DNA of 33,654 nucleotides from an uncultured Desulfatiglans sp. (GTDB taxonomy: Bacteria > Desulfobacterota > DSM-4660 > Desulfatiglandales > HGW-15), in NCBI GenBank assembly GCA_964547435.1, contig CAZJOB010000003.1:4093-37746 (forward strand), in the 5' to 3' direction. Of the stretch, positions 1,159-11,416 are shown in pieces; within the stretch, counting starts at the first letter, position 1, and the number at the start of each line of letters is the position of its first letter. Under the pieces are notes generated by a model. The model saw only the letters and a list, made by a program, of their open reading frames with translations, was not told the origin of the DNA and made no database searches. Position numbers and translations under genes: made by a program.

Positions 1159-1875
1159 TTACTCTTTAGCCTTGGGTTTAGCAAACGGGAAAGCCGGCAT
1201 CGGCTTTCTGGGCGGCTGCAGGTTCCGGTCATATCCATTGATATCGGTCTGATCAGGGAGTTCATCCACAACCTTCAAGGCGTTCGCGACGCAGGCCTCT
1301 ACGCAGGCCTGTGAGCCATTTATTCCGCCTTTTTTGTTATAATAGGGAGTATCTGTGCATAAATCACACTTCATGGCTTTTTCTGTAACATGATTCCATA
1401 TCGGTCTATGCGGTATAAACGGGCAGGATTGTATGCATGTCTTACAGCCTATGCATTCATCCGCGTTGATCATTCTTATGTTGCCGTTTTCAGCGCTTAT
1501 ATGACACGCCCCTGTGGGACAATTTTTAACGCATAGAGGGTCCGGACACTGCCGGCAAAGGTTTATCTGAATATCAAAGGGATATTCATCAAGAACATTC
1601 CTATGAACCTGTATTCGCGACAGGGACAGATTGACTACACCCTCGTGAACAAGAGAGCATGAGATCATGCAGCCGTAACATCCGGCGCAGTTTTTGCTGT
1701 CACAGACCAGATATTTGGTTGACAGCGGGTATTCCTCCTTTGCTTCTGCTGCCGTGGGAGAACAGACAGCAAGGGCGGTTCCCGCAATCGCGGTACCCCC
1801 AATAGTCAGAAAATCACGCCTTGAATATTCCCTTTTTTCGGTTTTGTCGGGCACTTTTTTAAGGTCTTTTGACAT
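1159..1875 (-). CDS. Tat-signal 4x[4Fe-4S] ferredoxin-like electron-transfer subunit (DmsB/NrfC/HybA/YdhX type)
   Basis: This is the ORF-track frame. I prefer ATG 1875 (GGAGG 8 nt upstream) over the GTG at 1884. The twin-arginine motif SRRDFL is followed by a hydrophobic region and AEA. Four Cys groups are present: CAGCYGCMISC, CRQCPDPLCVKNCP, CIGCKTCIQSCP and CDLC...CVEAC. The gene ends 17 nt upstream of the AOR gene. Confidence 0.85.
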   Translation of the reverse strand: MSKDLKKVPDKTEKREYSRRDFLTIGGTAIAGTALAVCSPTAAEAKEEYPLSTKYLVCDSKNCAGCYGCMISCSLVHEGVVNLSLSRIQVHRNVLDEYPFDIQINLCRQCPDPLCVKNCPTGACHISAENGNIRMINADECIGCKTCIQSCPFIPHRPIWNHVTEKAMKCDLCTDTPYYNKKGGINGSQACVEACVANALKVVDELPDQTDINGYDRNLQPPRKPMPAFPFAKPKAKE

Positions 1876-2175
1876 GAATGACACCTCCGTAAATGAACTT
1901 GTTATTATATATCGACCTTTCGAACATTCGAATAAATCCTTTTCTTATCTGTAACAACTCCGGTATCTCGATCACTTGCGAATAAATGAAGGCACTCGGC
2001 GTCATAGATAACAAGAATTTACAGTTATATTAGTATAGGAATATATATTATGCATGTCAAGAAAGATATGGGATTAAAAATTGGCGGGAAAAGACCATAT
2101 ATCAAAATAAAATGATGCTAAACTGCATTTTTACCCTTCAAAAAGATTAAATAGGTTACGATTGATAGAATACGA

Positions 2176-2215: not shown

Positions 2216-3175
2216 TCACCGGATATTCTGTATCTCCTCGGACATTCCCTGCTCATAGGTGCTCCACCCGGAATTCAGGCCGAAGGCGCCTCTAAGAAAA
2301 ACAGCCTCAATCCGACGAATATTTCCCTTTTCAATCTTGAACAGCTCTGCTATCTGCCAGGTCCAGTTGATCGAGTGATGGTCAAAAAAACCGAACGCGA
2401 AGACTATTCCGCGTTCCCTGTCCACCGCGACAAAGCGGCGGTCGCGAATACGTGTGACAATGCCTGCCAGTTGTCCCGACTCAAACTGTGCCTTGCAATT
2501 GGTCTGTGTGGTCTGCATGCCGTTTTCAAAACGTTCGCAGTCATCTGTGAAAGGATAGTATCCCTTGCCGTCGTTTCTCTGCAGGCCCTCGAAATAATAG
2601 TCCGCAATCTTGACGAGTTCTTCCCGTGACATGCGTTCTTCTTCAGGTATGACCTCAGTGTAGACCTTATGAGGAGCTCCCATCTTTTCAACCGCCTCTC
2701 CGGTCGGAGGAAAGCGTGAGGGCTTCTGTTCCTCTTCTTCAAAAAGACTCGTCTCGGGACGTATCACAAGCTGTTCCGCCTCGCAGATCTTCCCGTTGTC
2801 GTCAATTTTCAAACGAATCGCGACGGCCGGCAGAGTCTCCTTTGCGTTCGGCCCGGCCCCGCCTCCTTCCTTGACTGTTCCAATATAGGCAATCTGACGG
2901 GTCTCCACATCAGGAACATAGAATTTATAGTTCCCCCTGCCTGTCATACTGTACCAGAGACCTTCACCGCCCAGGGGCAGTTGAACGCCGTTTTCTGTAA
3001 ATTTACAGTCCCTGGTAAAGAGTTCCAGGCTGGGATCATTGTTCATCATGGCGTCCATGTATTGATCAAGATAATTTTCCAGACACTCCCGGTCACAGAC
3101 CGGTTTATCACCCTGCGCAAAGGCCAATGGTGTCACGAACAATAATGCCGCGAAAATAAATACTCTCATCCTCAT
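2216..3175 (-). CDS. Exported protein of an uncharacterised paralog family, one module (P1)
   Basis: 319-aa ORF with AAGGAGG upstream. The signal peptide is MRMRVFIFAALLFVTPLAFA|QG. It is roughly 75% identical by eye to P2 and shares the module motifs CDRECL, F-x-ENG, GEGLW, RLKIDD..I.E.E, DDC.R.ENG and F.I..G.I..IEA. Confidence 0.85.
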   Translation of the reverse strand: MRMRVFIFAALLFVTPLAFAQGDKPVCDRECLENYLDQYMDAMMNNDPSLELFTRDCKFTENGVQLPLGGEGLWYSMTGRGNYKFYVPDVETRQIAYIGTVKEGGGAGPNAKETLPAVAIRLKIDDNGKICEAEQLVIRPETSLFEEEEQKPSRFPPTGEAVEKMGAPHKVYTEVIPEEERMSREELVKIADYYFEGLQRNDGKGYYPFTDDCERFENGMQTTQTNCKAQFESGQLAGIVTRIRDRRFVAVDRERGIVFAFGFFDHHSINWTWQIAELFKIEKGNIRRIEAVFLRGAFGLNSGWSTYEQGMSEEIQNIR

Positions 3176-3198: not shown

Positions 3199-4218
3199 TT
3201 ATCTGATGCTCTGAATCTCCTCGGAAATCCCCTGCTCGTATGTGCTCCATCCGGCATTCATTCCGAATGGACATTTGTGAAATACTGCTTCAATACGGCG
3301 GATAAGTCCGTTTTCGATCTTGAACAGTTCTGCCAACTGCCATGTAAAGTTTATGGAGTGATGATCAAAAAAACCAAATGCAAACACGATACCCCTCTCA
3401 CGGTCCACTGCCACAAACCTGCGGTCCCTGATTCTCGTAACAAAGCTGAGAAGCCCGGACTCGAACTGCTCCTTGCATCCCCAGGAAGCCGAATACATGG
3501 TCGAGGTTTTGGGATCGGGCCGTTTCTGGCCTTCCGGCACAGGAACATTCGTTGTCGGCATTCCATTTTCAATGCGATGACAATCATCTGTAAACGGGTA
3601 ATACCCCTTGCCGTCGTTCCTCTGCATACCCTCAAAGTAATAATTGGCCGCCTCGACAAGTTCTTCCCGTGACATGCGTTCTGCCTCCGGTATGACCTCG
3701 GTATATATCTTGTGGGGCGCACCCAATTTTTCGACGCTCTCGCCCGTGGGTGGAAACTGCATGCCGCCGCCTCCACCGCCGCCTAACATGCTTGTATCGG
3801 GACGTATAACGAGCTGTTCGGCTTCGCAAATCTTTCCGCTGTCATCTATCTTCAGACGAAGCGCGAAAGCTGAAATTGTGGCTTGTGCAGGAGGAGCGTC
3901 GCCCCCCTCTTTGACCGTTCCGATATATGCGACCTGCCTGGTCTCAATATCAGGCACGTAAAATTTATAGTTGCCCCTTCCTGACATGCTGAACCACAGC
4001 CCCTCGCCGCCCAGGGGCAGCCGAACGCCGTTTTCGGTAAATTTACAGTCTCTGGCAAAAAGTTCCGGGCCGGGGTCATTGGCCATCATTGAATCGAGAT
4101 ACCTGTCAACATAATTTTCCAGGCATGCCCGGTCACAGGTTGGTTTTACCGCATCCTGGGCATAGGAAACTGAACCAGTGAATAATATAACCGCAAAAAT
4201 CAATAGTCTCATTCGCAT
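3199..4218 (-). CDS. Exported protein of an uncharacterised paralog family, one module (P2)
   Basis: 339-aa ORF with AAGGAGG upstream. The signal peptide is MRMRLLIFAVILFTGSVSYA|QD. It is a tandem duplicate of P1, with a Gly7 linker and a 24-aa insertion relative to P1. Confidence 0.85.
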   Translation of the reverse strand: MRMRLLIFAVILFTGSVSYAQDAVKPTCDRACLENYVDRYLDSMMANDPGPELFARDCKFTENGVRLPLGGEGLWFSMSGRGNYKFYVPDIETRQVAYIGTVKEGGDAPPAQATISAFALRLKIDDSGKICEAEQLVIRPDTSMLGGGGGGGMQFPPTGESVEKLGAPHKIYTEVIPEAERMSREELVEAANYYFEGMQRNDGKGYYPFTDDCHRIENGMPTTNVPVPEGQKRPDPKTSTMYSASWGCKEQFESGLLSFVTRIRDRRFVAVDRERGIVFAFGFFDHHSINFTWQLAELFKIENGLIRRIEAVFHKCPFGMNAGWSTYEQGISEEIQSIR

Positions 4219-4241
4219 AGAAATCCTCCTTTATAAAGTGG

Positions 4242-4277
4242 CGTCCATTCAAAAAACGAATGTTTTTTGAATGGACG
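4242..4277 (-). promoter_or_regulatory. Perfect 16-bp intercistronic stem-loop between the selenoprotein candidate and P2
   Basis: cgtccattcaaaaaac-gaat-gttttttgaatggacg lies within the 71-nt gap. On the mRNA it sits just upstream of the P2 Shine-Dalgarno (..CCACUUUAUAAAGGAGG). No U-run follows it. Confidence 0.6.
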
Positions 4278-4289
4278 TCAGGTAGTTAT

Positions 4290-6020
4290 TTATCTCCACT
4301 CATCAACAGATGCACTCATCATATAGCTGAAATCCCCTGCCTGCCAGAACAGATTCGTCCCGCCGCCAAGGGATATTATGGTAATACTCTCAGGACGCGC
4401 GAACTGGGGAATCATTGCATCTTTCGGGAGCTTCATCCATGACGCGAAAGGTTCCTGCCCCATGCGGCCCATGGGAAGGATAAAATTCTGCACAGCATAA
4501 AAGTCATCCATCCAGTCTTCAACACTTACCTTTGTGTTCTTGTAGATCCATTCTATAAGCTGTTCCTTGGAATCAAACCCCTCATAGTCTTTCAACTGAT
4601 GTGTGATATTCGGATCCAGAAGAAGAGTCGCGGAGGAAAATGGGCTCACGAATTTCAGCCAGAAGGGTATCTGCGGGTGAAATGTCTTTTCCATGCTCTG
4701 GTCCGGATGTGTGAATCCCCATCCCAGAAACACGCTTACAGTGCTTTCTTCCGGTTTAAAGCCCTTCTGAACATGCAGAGGCTTCCATCCCGCGGGCAGT
4801 TCCTCTTCATTTTCAGCCATGCAGAGGTTGTTATAGTTATAGTTGTTGCCCTGACTGCCCATGTAGGTCTCACCAACCTTTCCGGATGCGCCCAGGTTGA
4901 TGGACATAAGGGTCCAGGCCCTTCCTATGACCGCGTTGGCGTGATTGAATGGCCCCAGGGCGCCTATTCCGGAATTCATGCCTATTTCGTTACGAACCGG
5001 ACCGTTCACAATCATCATGGTCGCGAAAGAGGTCGTGGATGTGGAAAGCGCGGTCATGCCCGTGGACGCCAGCGCCAGGATCACCGGAAAGTGCTCAGGT
5101 TTGGCCCCTGCCATTACGGCATTGACAGCAACCTTTTCCACCGTATAACTCCATAATTCATGAGGAGTAGATGGCTGCATCTTGCCCACCTCTTCATTCG
5201 CTCCGCGGCTTGTCCCCTGAAGCATCTCCGCGACTCTTTTTTCTGTGGGAAGCACAATGGGAAGCCCATCTGTCCACCCCTTTTCCAGAAACAGGCGATG
5301 CAGGTTTTCTTCTGTATTCTGTTCCACCAGTCTTGGCGTGGGTCTTTCAATAAACCCTGTCTTTTTGTCTTCACTGCCAAGCGGAACGGTAAGGGCATCA
5401 ATAATCATGTCAATGACAGGCCTTCCTGTAACCAGGTCATTTCCTTTCAGATATTTCCGGCATACCTCAGAGGTAGTGCCCGCTATAGGATGAGGCACAA
5501 ACGTAAAACGTTCATTGGGCATGCCCTTTTTATATGCGTAGGTTGTCACAAGTTCCCTGAATCTTATGGTGCTTATGGGTGCTGTGGGCACCCCAAGCTT
5601 TTCAACTGTCCAGCAGTGGCCGGCGACCGACGGCGCGCAGGTGCTTCAATGCCCCACGCCCATGATCATGCCGTGCCCCTTTTCCTTGATCTCAGCCCAC
5701 AGATCAGGGTCATCATTAAAATATGTCCCTATCTTTCTTCGTAAAACCCATGTGGTTGCCGGATATTTTTCCTGTAAAAGTTCCTTCAGTTCTGCCAGGA
5801 ACTGATCCGTGGCCGAAAAACCTATATCCACAATGTATATTGTTTTTCCTTTAAGGTCATCGATCCTTGGGGCCATGGGGACCCGTTCAATAGCCGGGGG
5901 CTGGCCCAGAGGATTAAGGACTGTGATTTCCGGTTCCTTTTCCCGGGACAGCGTCGATGAAGCCGTGATCGTGATCAATGCAACGAAAAACAACAACCCT
6001 ATATTAATGTTCTTTTTCAA
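4290..6020 (-). CDS. Candidate exported selenoprotein: GrdB/PrdB/'UGSC'-like U-x-x-C core fused to an unassigned C-terminal domain (TGA at 5646-5648 read as Sec)
   Basis: Track ORFs 5646..6056 and 4290..5591 share one frame and are separated only by TGA plus 18 open codons. The downstream ORF has only a GTG start and no SD. The junction reads GMIMGVGH-U-STCAPSVAGHCWTVEKLGVPT...FVPHPIAG. I prefer the TTG start at 6020 (AAGGAGG 6 nt upstream), which gives MKKNINIGLLFFVALITITASS. If the TGA is a true stop, these are two separate genes (136 aa and 433 aa). Confidence 0.6.
5610..5641 (-). promoter_or_regulatory. Candidate bacterial SECIS stem-loop
   Basis: In the mRNA after UGA, a GCCG/CGGC upper stem carries the apical loop UCGGUCGC, which starts 16 nt after the UGA. 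A lower CC.GC/GC.GG helix lies across an internal loop. I folded this by eye only. A second 6-bp hairpin, GGGUGC-CCACA-GCACCC, lies at 5577-5593. Confidence 0.3.
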
Positions 6021-6112
6021 AAGACGCCCTCCTTTTAAGACATTTAATTGGGTCAATCCTAATTTTTCAAAGGATTATGTCCTGTTTTAATTGAGAAATT
6101 TGCCAAGCAAGT

Positions 6113-6246
6113 ATCTACAGCCGTGCCCGGTGTCTGTCACCCTGAGCAAAGCGAAGGGTCTCTATTTTATGACCAGTCACATGCCGGATCATGCCATTCA
6201 GAATAACAGATTCATGAGAGATTCTTCGCTTCGCTCAGAATGACAT
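6113..6246 (+). repeat. Repeat family A, copy 1: MITE-like element of about 135 bp with imperfect terminal inverted repeats
   Basis: It is roughly 88% identical by eye to the reverse complement of 15869-15999. The ends, gtcaccctgagcaaagcgaagggtctc and gagattcttcgcttcgctcagaatgac, are inverted repeats of each other. Confidence 0.8.
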
Positions 6247-6305
6247 TTTTAAATTGCTCAGCATGCATCTGTGGATAACTCAATCATTGCGAATGCTGGA
6301 ATCCC

Positions 6306-6348
6306 ATAAAAATCTTGTACGGATTTGCATGAAAATCCGTACATAAGA
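6306..6348 (-). terminator. Intrinsic terminator after paralog P3
   Basis: The core stem gtacggattt/aaatccgtac (10 bp) extends to about 14 bp with one bulge. On the minus strand UUUUUAUGGG follows it directly. It lies about 80 nt after the P3 stop. Confidence 0.6.
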
Positions 6349-6425: not shown

Positions 6426-8327
6426 CTATTCCCAGCCGCTTGTCAGACCGGTTCCGGCGTAAAAATAACCGATTGCCTCTATATCATATATCTTCCCGTT
6501 CCGAATCTTATAGATATGGGCAGCAGGCAGTTCAAATGGACCCCACTCGTTTGGTCGTTCTGTGGTCCCCGGCACGCCCTTGATCTCCATTACCTTTGGT
6601 TCTCCGTTGTGGCGGAATATGGAAAAGGCGAATACAAGACCCTTTTCTTCATCAACGGCAAAGACACGCCTGTCGGTGATATCGGTAATATAGCTCATGA
6701 CCCCTGTGGTGAGCTGCTCCCCGCATTTCATCTTTCTGAACACCGAAAAGTCATCCTTTGCTGCCTCTTCCGGCGTCTGGGTCTGATCGTTCGCGCTAAT
6801 GCCGCCGTTCTCCCTGCGCTGGCATTCATCGGCAAATGGAGCTGCATCGCCGTTGTCCTGAAGGATTGCTTCGTAATATGAATTGGCGATCTCTATCATT
6901 CTTTCCCTGGGTATGCGCTCCATCTTTGGCTGTCTCTCCAGCAGAGCGGCCCGCACCTTTGACATGTTGGGATTTAAGGATTCCCCGGACTCATTATGAA
7001 TAACAAGGTGATCTATCTTCGTGATCATATGATCCTCCATCTTGAGCCTTATAGCCGCGATGGTCGGATTTTTATTCTCCTCAATCACACCCATAAATGC
7101 CACCTCACCGGCATCGGGATCAGCTACGATTATTCTGAAATCGGTCGGTCCTCCGGTCGCGGTCTTCCACAGCCCCTCACCAATGGAAATCTTTTTTGTG
7201 TTTTCCACAATTTTTACACCATCGGCAAGCGGAAGGCCCGCAGGGTCATTTTTGGCCAGGGAGGCAAGATACTGATCCATCTTTTCCTCCAGGCATTTTT
7301 TGTTGCAGTTCCAGCCGTCAGAGGCCTGGTATGGGACACCCACAATGGCCATTGCCTCGATCTCATAGATTTTGCCGTTTCGAATCTTATATATATGGGC
7401 AGCGGGAACAGTAAACTGGCCCCACTCGTTTTTACGTTCGGTCAGACCGGGCAGGTTTATAACCGGCATGGGGTCAGGTTCGCCATCATGGTTGAACATG
7501 GAATATACCATAACCAGTCCCATCTCCTCGTCTATGGCTACAGGACGAATCTGGTTGATATCCGTGATATACCTCCACATGCCCGTGTCCATCTGTTCCG
7601 CGCATGTCATCTTTAAGAAGGCCAGCATTCCGCCGGCAGATGTCATGTCTCCCTCCCCCATCTTTGGATCCTGATTATTGGCAGTGGTCATTCCGTTTTC
7701 ATTACGCTGGCATTCATCCGCAAAAGGCGCTGCCGCGCCGCTGTTCTGTTCAAGAGAATCATAATAGGCAAGCGCCGCCTTCAGCATCTTATAACGCGGA
7801 GTCTTTTCCGATTCATCCAGTTTTTCAATAAGTGCAGGACGCGGCTTTGTCAGACCTTCGGGCACAGCATCGCCAGCCATGGGAGATGACGCAGGAGAAA
7901 CCATGTGATCGATTTCGGTTATTTCACCCTTTTCAAGCTTCAGACGAGCGCCCACAAGAACCGGTTTTCCCTCGCTCTCCATAACTCCCATGAAACCGAT
8001 TCGTTCCTCAACAGGGTCAGCGACATAGATCTTGAAATCTGTCGGTCCCGCAGTGGCGGTTTTCCAGAGGCCCTCTCCAACCTTTATTGGCTGAATATTT
8101 TCCACAAACTTTGCATCGGCGGCAATAGGAATACCTGAAGGGTCATGCGCCACCAGTGCCGCAAGATATTGATCCATCAAATCAACCAGAGATGCCCGCA
8201 GATCAACCTGTTGTTCAGACTTGATCTCATCATCGGTCGCGGTGGGCTCTGTCTCCTTTTTTGAGCAGGAAAAATTTAATGTACACACAAAAAGAAAGAT
8301 AAATATCAGAATTGCTGTTTTTTTCAT
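6426..8327 (-). CDS. Exported (probably lipid-anchored) protein of the same paralog family, two tandem modules (P3)
   Basis: 633-aa ORF with AAGGAG upstream. The N-terminus is MKKTAILIFIFLFVCTLNFSC|SKKETE, a Cys after the hydrophobic region in a non-canonical lipobox. The second module starts at WNCNKKCLEEKMDQYL, and the protein ends in SGWE. Confidence 0.85.
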   Translation of the reverse strand: MKKTAILIFIFLFVCTLNFSCSKKETEPTATDDEIKSEQQVDLRASLVDLMDQYLAALVAHDPSGIPIAADAKFVENIQPIKVGEGLWKTATAGPTDFKIYVADPVEERIGFMGVMESEGKPVLVGARLKLEKGEITEIDHMVSPASSPMAGDAVPEGLTKPRPALIEKLDESEKTPRYKMLKAALAYYDSLEQNSGAAAPFADECQRNENGMTTANNQDPKMGEGDMTSAGGMLAFLKMTCAEQMDTGMWRYITDINQIRPVAIDEEMGLVMVYSMFNHDGEPDPMPVINLPGLTERKNEWGQFTVPAAHIYKIRNGKIYEIEAMAIVGVPYQASDGWNCNKKCLEEKMDQYLASLAKNDPAGLPLADGVKIVENTKKISIGEGLWKTATGGPTDFRIIVADPDAGEVAFMGVIEENKNPTIAAIRLKMEDHMITKIDHLVIHNESGESLNPNMSKVRAALLERQPKMERIPRERMIEIANSYYEAILQDNGDAAPFADECQRRENGGISANDQTQTPEEAAKDDFSVFRKMKCGEQLTTGVMSYITDITDRRVFAVDEEKGLVFAFSIFRHNGEPKVMEIKGVPGTTERPNEWGPFELPAAHIYKIRNGKIYDIEAIGYFYAGTGLTSGWE

Positions 8328-8350: not shown

Positions 8351-10198
8351 TTATTCCCAGCCGTTTGTTATGCCGTGTTCAGCCATAAATCCTATGGCCT
8401 CTATCTCATATATCCTGCCCTTGCGAATCTTGAAGACATGGGCTGCCGGAAGGTCAAAGGCGCCGTAATCATTTGAACGCTCGGTAACTCCGGGAACACC
8501 TGTGATCTTGATCACCTTTGGTTCACCGTCGTGACGGAATATGGAAAAGGCAAACGCCAGCCCTTTCTCCTCATCAATAGCCAGGATGCGCCTGTCCGTG
8601 ATATCGGTGATATATTCCCACACACCTGTATTCATCTGTTCCCCGCATTTCATTTGGCCGAAAACCGACAGTCCGGGATCTGCCCCTTTGGGCACAGGGG
8701 TGGTATCACCGGCGCTTATGCCGCCGTGTTCCCTCCTCTGGCATTCATCTGCAAAGGGCGCCACATCGCCGTTTCCCTGAAGAATCGCCTCATAATATGA
8801 ATTGGCGATCGCCTTCATGCGTTCCCGTGACACACGTTCCATCTTGGGCTGCCTCTCCAGAAGCGCGGGCCGCACAGCGGACATGTTTGAATGCAATGCC
8901 TCCCCGGACTCATTATGAATGACAAGGTGGTCTATCTTCGCAATCCTCTGGTTTTCCACCTTGAGCCGGATAGCGGCAATGGTCGGTTGATTATTCTCTT
9001 CGAGCACCCCCATAAAGGCTACTTCGCCTGAATCAGGATCGGCCACTACTATCTTGAAATTTGTGGGAACTCCGGTAGCTGTTTTCCAGAGACCCTCACC
9101 CACAGGGATCTTTTTTGTGTTTTCCACAAGCACTGCATTGTCAGCCAGAGGGACGCCGGCGATATCGTTCTTTGCCAGACCCTCCAGGTATTGATCCATC
9201 TTTTCTTCCAGGCATTTTCTGGTGCAGCTCCAGCCGTCAGAGGCCTGGTATGGTATGCCCAGGCAGGCGATTGCCTCGATCTCATAGATCTTACCTTTCC
9301 TTATCTTGTATATGTGCCCTGCTCCGACACTGAACTGTCCCCAGTCATTGGGACTTTGGGTAACACCGGGCATGTTTCTGACAGGCAAAGGATTCGGTTC
9401 GCCGTCATGGTTGAACATTGAAAAGGCCATGACCAGCCCCATCTCCTCATCCACGGCGAACAGCCGCCTTTGATTGATATCCGTTATATACGCCATAATT
9501 CCGGTGCTGAGCTGCTCCCCGCACTTCAATCTTCCGAATGCGGTCATAGCGCCAAAGGTAGTTTCAGCGTCATCAGGGACAGGTTCCTGATTATTGGCTG
9601 ATGTAATGCCGCCCTCATGTCTCTCGCACTCCTCGGCAAAGGGCGCCACCTTGCCGTCGCTCTGTTCTATGGCATCATAATATGCATTGGCCGCCTTCAG
9701 CATCTCTTCGCGTGAAACCCTTTCTGCCGGATCAAGTTTCTGAACCAGTCCGGGCCTTGGTTTCAGCAAACCTTCAGGAAGCGGGCCGTCAATTCTCCAT
9801 ATCATATGATCGATCTCAGTGATCTGATCATTCTCCAGCCTCAGGCGAACTGCCAGTTGAATCGGTTTTCCCTGGTCTTCAATCACACCCATAAAGCCCA
9901 CCTGCCCGGCGACCGGGTCTGCCACATAGATCTTATAATCGTTCGTACCGCCGGTTGAGGACTCCCAAAGGCCCTTGCCTATGGGTGTAACTACAGTGTT
10001 TTCCACAAGCTTTACATCAGCCGCGAGCGGAAGACCTGCGGAATCATGCTTTACCAGGGCAGTAAGATATTGATCCATCAGGTCAACCAGTTGCGCACGG
10101 GAGTCAACCTGTTTTTCAGTCTCTTTTTTTGAACATGAAAAATTTAAAAAACCACAGGCAAGGAAAACAAACAAAAGAAGAATAGATGCCTTTTTCAT
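8351..10198 (-). CDS. Exported (probably lipid-anchored) protein of the same paralog family, two tandem modules (P4)
   Basis: 615-aa ORF with AAGGAG upstream. The N-terminus is MKKASILLLFVFLACGFLNFSC|SKKETE. Its C-terminal module is roughly 75% identical by eye to that of P3, and the protein ends in NGWE. Confidence 0.85.
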   Translation of the reverse strand: MKKASILLLFVFLACGFLNFSCSKKETEKQVDSRAQLVDLMDQYLTALVKHDSAGLPLAADVKLVENTVVTPIGKGLWESSTGGTNDYKIYVADPVAGQVGFMGVIEDQGKPIQLAVRLRLENDQITEIDHMIWRIDGPLPEGLLKPRPGLVQKLDPAERVSREEMLKAANAYYDAIEQSDGKVAPFAEECERHEGGITSANNQEPVPDDAETTFGAMTAFGRLKCGEQLSTGIMAYITDINQRRLFAVDEEMGLVMAFSMFNHDGEPNPLPVRNMPGVTQSPNDWGQFSVGAGHIYKIRKGKIYEIEAIACLGIPYQASDGWSCTRKCLEEKMDQYLEGLAKNDIAGVPLADNAVLVENTKKIPVGEGLWKTATGVPTNFKIVVADPDSGEVAFMGVLEENNQPTIAAIRLKVENQRIAKIDHLVIHNESGEALHSNMSAVRPALLERQPKMERVSRERMKAIANSYYEAILQGNGDVAPFADECQRREHGGISAGDTTPVPKGADPGLSVFGQMKCGEQMNTGVWEYITDITDRRILAIDEEKGLAFAFSIFRHDGEPKVIKITGVPGVTERSNDYGAFDLPAAHVFKIRKGRIYEIEAIGFMAEHGITNGWE

Positions 10199-10282: not shown

Positions 10283-11188
10283 TTATTCCCAACCGTATTT
10301 AGTGCCTGCGGGCACGATCTCACAGTATGCCTCTGCCGCGTGAATCAGGCCGTCATATATCTTAAAGGAGTGCCACACATCCAGCACCCCGTCGCCCTGA
10401 AAGGTGGATCCGGGACCGAAATTCATGCGCACCGCGACCACGCCCAGTTCTTCGTCCACTGCTATAACCCTGTGAGTGATGCCTGAAAGGGTGGGAATAA
10501 ACTGGGTCTTCATGTTGTCGCATCCCTCGAAAAAGGTGCACCCCGGCCCTGCCATAAGCTGCCCGTTTTCATAACGATACGCATCCACAGCCATGGGTGA
10601 GTCAACCTTTACAAAACTGCCGACCTTCAGACCCTCAGGATAGGTCAGGGCCATTTTAATCATCTCCTCCCTGGCAACCAGTTTTTCCCTTGCCGGAAAA
10701 GACAGCATGGTCTCGCTGGCAGTCTTCAGGTTCTCAAGGTTAAAAAGCATGCCCTCTTCCCGGTTTCTGACAACAGTGGTCTCTATCTCTGATATCTTCT
10801 GATCGTCGATCTTCAGTCTCATCACAAAAAGGACAGGAGATTTGGCCTCCTCTACTACAAGGAATGATACTGCCACACCCTGCTTTACATCAAGAATGTC
10901 CCTGCGGTAGCCTGTGAGTCCGGATATGTTTTCCCAGAGACCCTGTCCGAGTTTCATCTCTTTGCAGTCTTCGGTAAATTTTACATTGGCGGCAACAGGC
11001 AGGGATTCCGGTTTGTGAGCGATCATGGCATCCAGGTATCTTGTTATGAACCCGCTGAGACATTCACGGTCACACGCCTTATTAACAGATTTTGTTGTTG
11101 TTTCCTCTATTACTTTTACGTTTGATATGCAGCTGATCCCTGTTAGAAAAAACAGGACAATTATGGTGATTATGCCTTTTCTGAACAT
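10283..11188 (-). CDS. Exported protein of the same paralog family, one divergent module (P5)
   Basis: This is the track ORF trimmed to ATG 11188 (AAGGAGG 5 nt upstream), giving MFRKGIITIIVLFFLTGISC... It contains KACDRECLSGFITRYLDAM, GQGLW, RLKIDDQKISEIE and YRYENG, and ends in YGWE. Confidence 0.8.
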   Translation of the reverse strand: MFRKGIITIIVLFFLTGISCISNVKVIEETTTKSVNKACDRECLSGFITRYLDAMIAHKPESLPVAANVKFTEDCKEMKLGQGLWENISGLTGYRRDILDVKQGVAVSFLVVEEAKSPVLFVMRLKIDDQKISEIETTVVRNREEGMLFNLENLKTASETMLSFPAREKLVAREEMIKMALTYPEGLKVGSFVKVDSPMAVDAYRYENGQLMAGPGCTFFEGCDNMKTQFIPTLSGITHRVIAVDEELGVVAVRMNFGPGSTFQGDGVLDVWHSFKIYDGLIHAAEAYCEIVPAGTKYGWE

Positions 11189-11416
11189 TATTTCCTCCTT
11201 GGATATATGATGTGTGCGGAAAAATCTTTGTGATCTCTTCCTATATAACACTTTTTTTTAATAAACAAGATGGAAATACCGAAGGCTTTTTTCTGTTTTC
11301 CCTTCAGACTTCAGCCTAAACGCCTTCAGCCTATATCTGATTCCCCCACTGTAATTCATGGCATTTGGCAAGGTCATCTTTCTCTACAGTTTAAGCGACC
11401 AGACCCCTTAAATTTT

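Follow-up and report, generated by a model that had tools for sequence, protein, structure and literature searches.

An in-frame TGA joins two called reading frames into one probable UGSC-type selenoprotein gene in an uncultured Desulfatiglans species

The locus described here lies on the minus strand of a 33,654-nucleotide stretch of contig CAZJOB010000003.1 from an uncultured Desulfatiglans sp. (the whole of this 33.6-kb stretch is called the window below). A first-pass annotation of the window had proposed that two called open reading frames (ORFs), separated by a TGA triplet, belong to one gene for a selenocysteine-containing protein. The upstream ORF, 5646..6056, stops at TGA 5646-5648. 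The 18 codons that follow this triplet, STCAPSVAGHCWTVEKLG, are open and in frame with GTG 5589-5591, the called start of ORF 4290..5591, which encodes 433 amino acids and ends at TAA 4290-4292. Inspection of the sequence revealed no Shine-Dalgarno sequence ahead of this GTG. When the frame is read instead from the TTG at 6018-6020, 124 codons precede the TGA and the frame then stays open to the TAA, giving a complete coding sequence at 4290..6020 whose conceptual product has 576 residues. The junction coordinates, the 18 open codons and the product length that had been reported all proved correct in the sequence. The proposed start is likewise preceded by a Shine-Dalgarno sequence, AGGAGG at 6028..6033 (minus strand), 7 nt upstream of the TTG, and the close relatives at loci L001 and L002 share both a TTG start and an L-K-K-K beginning with the window gene.

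The TGA at 5646..5648 corresponds to residue 125 and opens a U-S-T-C motif (5637-5648) in the context GVGH-U-STC. A G-V-P-T sequence begins at U+18, so both the U-x-x-C pair and the second motif are present where they had been predicted. Four lines of evidence, namely the reading frame itself, a Pfam domain that crosses the TGA, full-length homologs of 545-622 amino acids that carry cysteine (Cys), and the aligned codons of 81 loci, lead us to conclude that the two called ORFs are one gene, and that its internal TGA almost certainly encodes selenocysteine. Elsewhere in the window, TGA is the stop codon of six of 23 large ORFs, an ordinary use that rules out a reassigned genetic code, and the code is standard. 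Moreover, this is the only in-frame TGA in the window that has at least 60 open codons on each side, lies in a credible coding frame and does not coincide with an ordinary gene boundary; no other convincing candidate was found across the 33.6 kb.

A domain search with the conceptual product, in which Cys takes the place of the stop, matched Pfam family PF24696 (UGSC) with 90.4 bits (gathering threshold 25) and an E-value of 1.9e-25. The match covers residues 33-189 (5454..5924, minus strand) and model positions 1-157 of 172, and the domain alone scores 94 bits. The TGA falls near the middle of the model. Because the PF24696 alignment continues across it, the stop lies inside a domain and not between genes, as had been suspected, and UGSC, which had been named among the possible kin of the protein, is indeed its family. 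With its added parts the 576-residue product far exceeds the size of a stand-alone UGSC protein, about 150 amino acids as inferred from the 147 positions of the NCBIfam model NF041046. The resemblance to the selenoproteins PrdB and GrdB that had also been suggested did not hold up: no match to the Pfam GRDB family (PF07355) was found at E<=1 with the whole protein or at E<=10 with the UGSC domain, and no other reductase family was matched even at E<=10.

The UGSC domain is predicted to adopt an alpha/beta fold. In an AlphaFold2 (AF2) model of the 560-residue Cys homolog P0128 (predicted local distance difference test score, pLDDT, 92.5; predicted template modelling score, pTM, 0.91), strands and helices alternate in the UGSC part, and the C-x-x-C pair follows strand 100-106 and opens helix 111-125. 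Foldseek searches with this part of the model returned weak matches, with E-values of about 0.01, to alpha/beta proteins of a Rossmann-like type, SIS and flavodoxin among them. A thioredoxin fold, which has been proposed for UGSC (PMC2398784), was absent among these weak matches.

The part of the protein encoded after the TGA was used, together with a natural Cys homolog, for the queries and models of the representative search and of structure prediction. A word-indexed protein search yielded 7187 matches, of which the best 120 show 69-100% identity. All 120 are 407-446 amino acids long with called starts after the TGA, lengths that indicate that gene callers began them past this triplet. An exhaustive HMMER search with this post-TGA part found 4138 cluster representatives (50% identity clusters) at E<=1e-3, among them the full-length homologs of 545-622 amino acids. 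In these full-length proteins the selenocysteine column is occupied by Cys, in CSTC, CPGC, CGSC and CGGM contexts, and less often by T, M, G or S.

Codons at this column were compared by scanning one genome per species, which gave at least 587 matching loci, and by aligning the best 80 of these plus one locus fetched earlier. Among the resulting 81 loci the aligned codon is TGA in 69, TGC in nine, TGT in two and CTA in one, which bears out the expectation that homologs would carry selenocysteine or Cys at the aligned position. All 81 loci have an open upstream frame of 82-180 codons, and the x-x-C that follows the column is kept in all except the CTA locus. The U/C-x-x-C motif itself varies, occurring as USTC, USSC, UDGC, UPGC, UGGC and UNGC. 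Carriers are spread over Thermodesulfobacteriota, Acidobacteriota, Chloroflexota, Actinomycetota, Alpha-, Beta- and Gammaproteobacteria and Latescibacterota, with further examples in Binatia, Rokubacteria, Verrucomicrobiia and Bacillota. One relative, at 82% identity, comes from a Thermodesulfobacteriota single-amplified genome.

The coding character of the stretch immediately downstream of the TGA is also evident from close relatives. Over the 19 codons after the TGA, comparison of the window with L001 and L002 shows 13 identical codons, four to five synonymous differences and only one to two non-synonymous differences, a pattern that indicates a coding stretch under purifying selection. In the 40 codons before the TGA, 15-20 are identical, and the nucleotides are less conserved than in the 19 codons after it.

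Two further observations concern the homologs. One protein from JGI data (P0220, 262 amino acids) reads GH-W-STC at the selenocysteine column, where a gene caller working with a different code evidently put Trp for the TGA. Tandem paralogs are common: nine loci (L005, L007, L008, L024, L033, L036, L038, L065 and L068) each hold two or three long-form UGSC genes side by side or a short distance apart, which suggests diversification, perhaps of substrate specificity.

Bacterial selenocysteine codons are expected to be accompanied by a selenocysteine insertion sequence (SECIS), and a putative one lies at 5619..5634 on the minus strand. It is a hairpin, GCCGUC-GGUC-GCCGGC, with one U·C mismatch and the loop GGUC at 5625-5628, and its assignment relies on its position and on homologs. 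We aligned 70 TGA sequences, without gaps, over the 45 nt from the U of the UGA. In this numbering nucleotides 15-20 pair with nucleotides 25-30 around a four-base loop, which is GGUC in 47 of the 70 sequences. Helix positions are paired in 80.7% of cells versus 69.3% in column shuffles (none of 500 shuffles was as high), while slid partners reach at most 65%. The covariation score is 0.333 versus 0.166 in shuffles, again with none of 500 as high. The compensatory changes are visible in the protein: CCG-GCG-GUC-GCC-GG encodes P-A-V-A, CCG-ACG-GUC-GUC-GG encodes P-T-V-V and CCG-GAG-GUC-UCC-GG encodes P-E-V-S.

Loci without a TGA mostly do not keep this helix. Among the 12 such loci (11 Cys plus the CTA locus), pair 17-28 holds in two and pair 16-29 in none, the exceptions among Cys loci being two Burkholderiales loci that retain a CCGC-GGUG-GCGG hairpin. 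Folding of single sequences gives z-scores of -2.6 for L044 and -3.9 for L026, and about +1 for the Cys loci L025 and L043, in which the hairpin is absent. RNAalifold recovers just three pairs at near-zero energy from the 70-sequence alignment, because clades use slightly different stems; the direct count of pairs with its controls tells more. No Rfam family is present in the window at gathering thresholds, and only noise appears around the TGA at E<=10. The apical loop of the SECIS element in E. coli fdhF is G22-G23-U24-C25. Like that element, the window hairpin stands in coding sequence shortly after the UGA and presents a GGUC apical loop; it differs in that its loop (G21-G22-U23-C24) is one nucleotide nearer the UGA, and in that its stem is short and broken by the U·C mismatch.

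Genes for the selenocysteine machinery accompany homologs of the window gene in several genomes. At four proteobacterial loci (L031, L035, L040 and L041, from Rhizobiaceae, Oricola, another alphaproteobacterium and a gammaproteobacterium) the homolog stands beside sel genes. Locus L031 has, on one strand between 5700 and 13114, the long UGSC gene, selD, a gene for a thioredoxin reductase (TrxR)-like protein, selA, selB and tRNA-Sec. L035 has selD, selA and selB downstream of the homolog, and in L041 the contig ends after selD and the TrxR-like gene. In L040 the TrxR-like gene lies directly upstream, and selA and selB are found beyond it on the opposite strand. The tRNA-Sec gene adjoins selB in L031, L035 and L040. 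Representatives from L035 and L041 score far above the NCBIfam cut-offs for SelB (445 bits versus 242), SelA (595 versus 268) and SelD (497 versus 299). These loci show that, where the machinery is visible, the family is translated with selenocysteine; besides the UGSC gene, no other selenoprotein gene was seen in the four islands. SelB-dependent insertion of selenocysteine in the window organism is probable by analogy, helped by the 82% identity to a genome of Thermodesulfobacteriota, a group rich in selenoproteins (PMC1976440).

The N-terminus of the window protein had been described as signal-like, and its composition agrees. Residues 1 to about 22 (5955..6020, minus strand), MKKNINIGLLFFVALITITASS, form a predicted Sec-type signal peptide or membrane anchor with an MKK n-region, a 16-residue hydrophobic core and an A-S-S c-region; the Kyte-Doolittle average peaks at 2.8 over residues 7-19. 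The n-, h- and c-regions expected of a Sec-pathway signal are thus present, and no twin-arginine (RR) motif occurs in the window N-terminus, unlike in Acidobacteriota relatives. We infer that the protein is exported via the Sec pathway.

Across the family, N-termini fall into three classes. Most proteins from Proteobacteria, Chloroflexota and Actinomycetota have no signal. Sec-type N-termini occur in the window protein and at L001, L002, L005, L009, L011, L022 and L080. A twin-arginine sequence, MK[IV]NRRKLLSLLG.SPALLAG, begins the proteins of about 15 Acidobacteriota loci, all with TGA; this twin-arginine translocation (Tat) class (Acidiferrales) comprises L014, L019, L021, L024, L030, L036-L038, L046, L050, L060, L061, L070, L077 and L079. 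The joint presence of a twin-arginine signal and a TGA makes these Acidobacteriota forms predicted Tat-exported selenoproteins. The Tat-signal forms often adjoin a gene for a PQQ-dehydrogenase-like protein ('acido-empty-quinoprotein'), and at L038 a Tat-signal Cys paralog stands beside a selenocysteine one.

Downstream of the UGSC domain the protein continues into a 357-residue C-terminal domain of unknown function (residues 220-576; 4293..5363, minus strand), for which an AF2 model of the window sequence has pLDDT 93.7 and pTM 0.93. Its conserved motifs are GWTDGLPIVLPTE, VAVNAVMAGA, VNGP, ANAxIGRA, ENEE and S[IV]DxWR. Invariant or nearly invariant residues are the D of GWTDGLP, the T of LPTE, the N and R of ANAxIGRA, the E of ENEE, and the D and W of S[IV]DxWR, with no invariant Cys or His among them. 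The region of about 350 residues that had been reported as unassigned remains so in our searches. It has no match in Pfam or NCBIfam, a sequence profile found zero matches among PDB chains, and even the best Foldseek match in the PDB (E 0.19, probability 0.06) is not credible. The whole P0128 model likewise has no credible Foldseek match in the PDB. Distant relatives retain the architecture of UGSC plus C-terminal domain. Four proteins of about 710-740 amino acids (P0196, P0209, P0232 and P0237) carry two tandem C-terminal domains without UGSC and have no Pfam match, from which it follows that this domain also exists on its own.

The gene sits within an array of five minus-strand paralogs at 2216-3175, 3199-4218, 6426-8327, 8351-10198 and 10283-11251. 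These have signal-peptide or lipoprotein N-termini, and two are internal tandem duplications. They are about 70% identical to PF26061 (DUF8021) genes in L001, although against Pfam they themselves give no match beyond one faint hit to SnoaL_2; no mention of DUF8021 was found in the literature. The same synteny of DUF8021 genes and selenoprotein gene is seen in L001 and L002. DUF8021 was considered as a general partner of the selenoprotein and rejected as a clade-specific association, because such genes adjoin the selenoprotein gene in the window, L001, L002 and L019 alone. A hairpin scan detected, between the selenoprotein gene and the DUF8021 gene upstream of it, a terminator-like hairpin with a T-run at 6316..6343 (minus strand), which suggests that the gene may have its own promoter in 6057-6315. 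On the other side, 10 nt past the stop codon, a 19-bp near-perfect inverted repeat at 4239..4280 marks a possible transcript end. The T-rich tail of this repeat is on the plus strand only, where alone a simple scan scores a terminator, and for that reason the repeat can be said only to be a candidate terminator of the selenoprotein transcript. Downstream of the cluster, 1159-1884 (minus strand) encodes a 241-residue protein with a twin-arginine sequence, RRDFLTIGG, and 4Fe-4S dicluster domains; that this protein carries electrons in the periplasm for the exported selenoprotein system is pure conjecture.

Elsewhere in the family the recurrent neighbour is the TrxR-like flavoprotein, which scores 295 bits against TIGR01292, under the cut-off of 343. 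In about 11 loci its gene directly adjoins the long-form gene and shares its strand, and in three others it is found no more than about 3 kb away. Other neighbours include transporters, amidohydrolases, short-chain dehydrogenases/reductases (SDRs) and acyl-CoA synthetases.

Taken as a whole, these findings lead us to assign a probability of roughly 85% to the reading that one gene, at 4290-6020 on the minus strand, encodes a 576-residue UGSC-type selenoprotein with a redox role. Of its elements, the continuous ORF, the column of selenocysteine or Cys, the UGSC domain and the covariation of the hairpin are demonstrated. Translation would begin at TTG 6020, and SelB carrying Sec-tRNA(Sec), recruited by the hairpin 15-30 nt downstream, would decode UGA 5646-5648, after which translation would continue to TAA 4290. 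The product would consist of the signal peptide or anchor, the UGSC alpha/beta domain, with U-S-T-C preceded by a beta-strand and followed by a helix, and the 357-residue domain. Such a protein may be a selenol-dependent redox enzyme in which U125 and C128 of UGSC cycle between the selenol/thiol and selenenylsulfide states, in the service of chemistry carried out in the C-terminal domain, which would bind the substrate. In cytoplasmic relatives the pair might be re-reduced by the neighbouring TrxR-like flavoprotein.

Several observations weigh against this reading. The 33.6-kb window contains none of selA, selB, selC and selD, its sole tRNA gene being for tRNA-Met. The window hairpin is not the minimum-free-energy fold and, at z +1.27, is no better than shuffled sequence, so the folding check that had been recommended around the TGA drew no signal from the post-UGA region of the window alone, and the case for a SECIS had to be made comparatively. 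Its U·C mismatch is not repaired in the nearest relatives, which show either U·C again or U·U. The protein scores only 69 bits against the NCBIfam equivalog 'UGSC family (seleno)protein' (NF041046), whose cut-off is 125. Nine long-form homologs tested against the same model all fall under that cut-off as well, at 32-86 bits, which argues that the long form is a subfamily separate from the equivalog's own members, and the window gene is best described as a member of this long-form UGSC subfamily. Seven full-length homologs (P0122, P0123, P0138, P0140, P0159, P0166 and L008) carry Thr, Met, Gly, Ser or Leu in the selenocysteine column and have lost the x-x-C, yet retain the C-terminal motifs, an arrangement which indicates that the C-terminal domain may work independently of the redox pair. 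Finally, the literature yielded no experimental work on any UGSC protein.

Two alternatives deny that the TGA is read through. If translation stopped at TGA 5646, leaving a 124-residue fragment, and the downstream ORF of 433 or fewer residues were started independently, the locus would hold two genes. This is how the best 120 database entries were called, and a separate 107-residue 'UGSC' fragment is called in L001; the weakness of the window hairpin also fits. However, the stop would then fall amid a Pfam domain, the 18 'intergenic' codons would be under purifying selection, and the GTG would have to serve without a Shine-Dalgarno sequence. Homologs that consistently ended at this position were not what we found, since 11 orthologous loci read continuously through it with Cys codons, and the database calls mirror the way gene finders handle TGA rather than termination. 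We consider two separate genes highly improbable. A nonsense mutation of a former Cys codon, or a sequencing error, is conceivable in that TGC and TGT are one base from TGA. Even so, 69 independent species genomes spread over many phyla share the TGA at this column, both halves of the gene are intact and conserved, and a covarying hairpin accompanies the TGA and is missing in most Cys forms, leaving a pseudogene with a negligible chance of being the explanation.

Other alternatives accept a genuine selenoprotein and differ in what it does. The U-x-x-C might be a binding site or carrier for a metal, metalloid or selenium, or else a redox switch with a regulatory role, with the C-terminal domain as a non-redox enzyme or binder. 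The varied gene contexts, the lack of an invariant Cys or His in the C-terminal domain and the tandem C-terminal-domain proteins without UGSC all agree with a non-catalytic role of this kind, and the rival has real weight because homologs with neither Cys nor selenocysteine at the column keep all the C-terminal motifs. Against it, selenocysteine is strongly preferred to Cys (69:11), as is typical of catalytic redox sites, the TrxR-like neighbour recurs in about 11-14 loci, and the C-x-x-C of the P0128 model sits at a helix N-terminus like known redox-active pairs. We regard a carrier or switch as the main functional rival, unlikely but to be taken seriously. Far less probable is a substrate-specific reductase subunit of the GrdB/PrdB type. 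Glycine and proline reductases are thioredoxin-dependent, general knowledge from which a likeness to the window protein is drawn through its U-x-x-C motif and the TrxR-like neighbour, part of a thioredoxin system, in some relatives. The resemblance is confined to the motif, however: besides the missing family matches there is no match in PDB sequences or folds, no pyruvoyl-subunit or grdA partner lies nearby, and no grdA, grdE or prdA-like genes appear among the recurrent neighbour clusters.

A catalytic selenoprotein, the reading we prefer, would belong to a family that is already known. UGSC proteins have been recognized since about 2005-2008 as selenoproteins of unknown function in analyses of the Sargasso Sea, Global Ocean Sampling (GOS) and Olavius symbiont data (PMC2398784, PMC1976440), and reviews of 2022 and 2026 still list them as uncharacterised (PMC9312934, PMC13188914). 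The window protein shares with the family (PF24696, NF041046; reference ABI76733.1 from Hyphomonas neptunium) the same domain with U-x-x-C at the same column, and also the prevalence of selenocysteine over Cys forms, 69:11 among our loci and 255:21 among GOS sequences (PMC2398784). It differs in having USTC rather than UGSC as its motif, in its added signal peptide and 357-residue C-terminal domain, and in falling short of the equivalog cut-off. Its closest named counterpart is WP_358488424.1 from Pseudonocardia sp., a 560-residue protein that NCBI calls 'UGSC family (seleno)protein'. This protein has the same two-domain architecture and conserved motifs, with 45% identity over 451 residues, but carries Cys for selenocysteine (CSTC), lacks a signal peptide and is annotated as a single ORF.

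The first-pass annotation had judged that an exported selenoprotein fused to an unassigned domain would be unusual. We do not share that view, as UGSC proteins are long known and abundant, a fusion of UGSC to a domain labelled Unknown_1 ('UGSC/Unknown_1') was reported by Zhang & Gladyshev in 2008 (PMC2398784), and the long Cys form already has its NCBI name. Export alone is not exceptional either, since surveys already list DsbA-like and DsbG-like selenoprotein families, which are periplasmic thiol oxidoreductases by homology (PMC2398784, PMC1976440). The window gene is therefore a mis-annotated selenoprotein of an already known kind, and current understanding is not overturned.

For annotation, the two called ORFs should become one selenocysteine-containing coding sequence, and the same mis-call hits essentially every close relative, the best 120 matches being all truncated. 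Few predicted selenoproteins of bacteria are as abundant as the UGSC proteins, none of which has a known function, and the locus offers new handles on them. The long form is the common architecture in this branch, and its C-terminal domain has a confident model without a solved relative. A recurrent TrxR-like partner is a candidate reductant, some genomes hold complete islands of selenocysteine machinery, and cytoplasmic, Tat-exported and Sec-exported versions all exist, as predicted from their N-termini. A broader picture, which we offer tentatively and consider doubtful as a whole, is that the long form constitutes a very large selenoenzyme family split by annotation (at least 587 loci and 4138 clusters), with a catalytic C-terminal domain of unsolved fold. 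If so, one enzyme would be deployed in three compartments, in the cytoplasm and, after export, by the Tat and the Sec routes. The long UGSC gene, as the sole selenoprotein gene seen in some proteobacterial islands, would be the reason that such lineages keep selenocysteine decoding. The window version, amid secreted NTF2-like DUF8021 paralogs, would then represent a periplasmic redox system based on a selenol.

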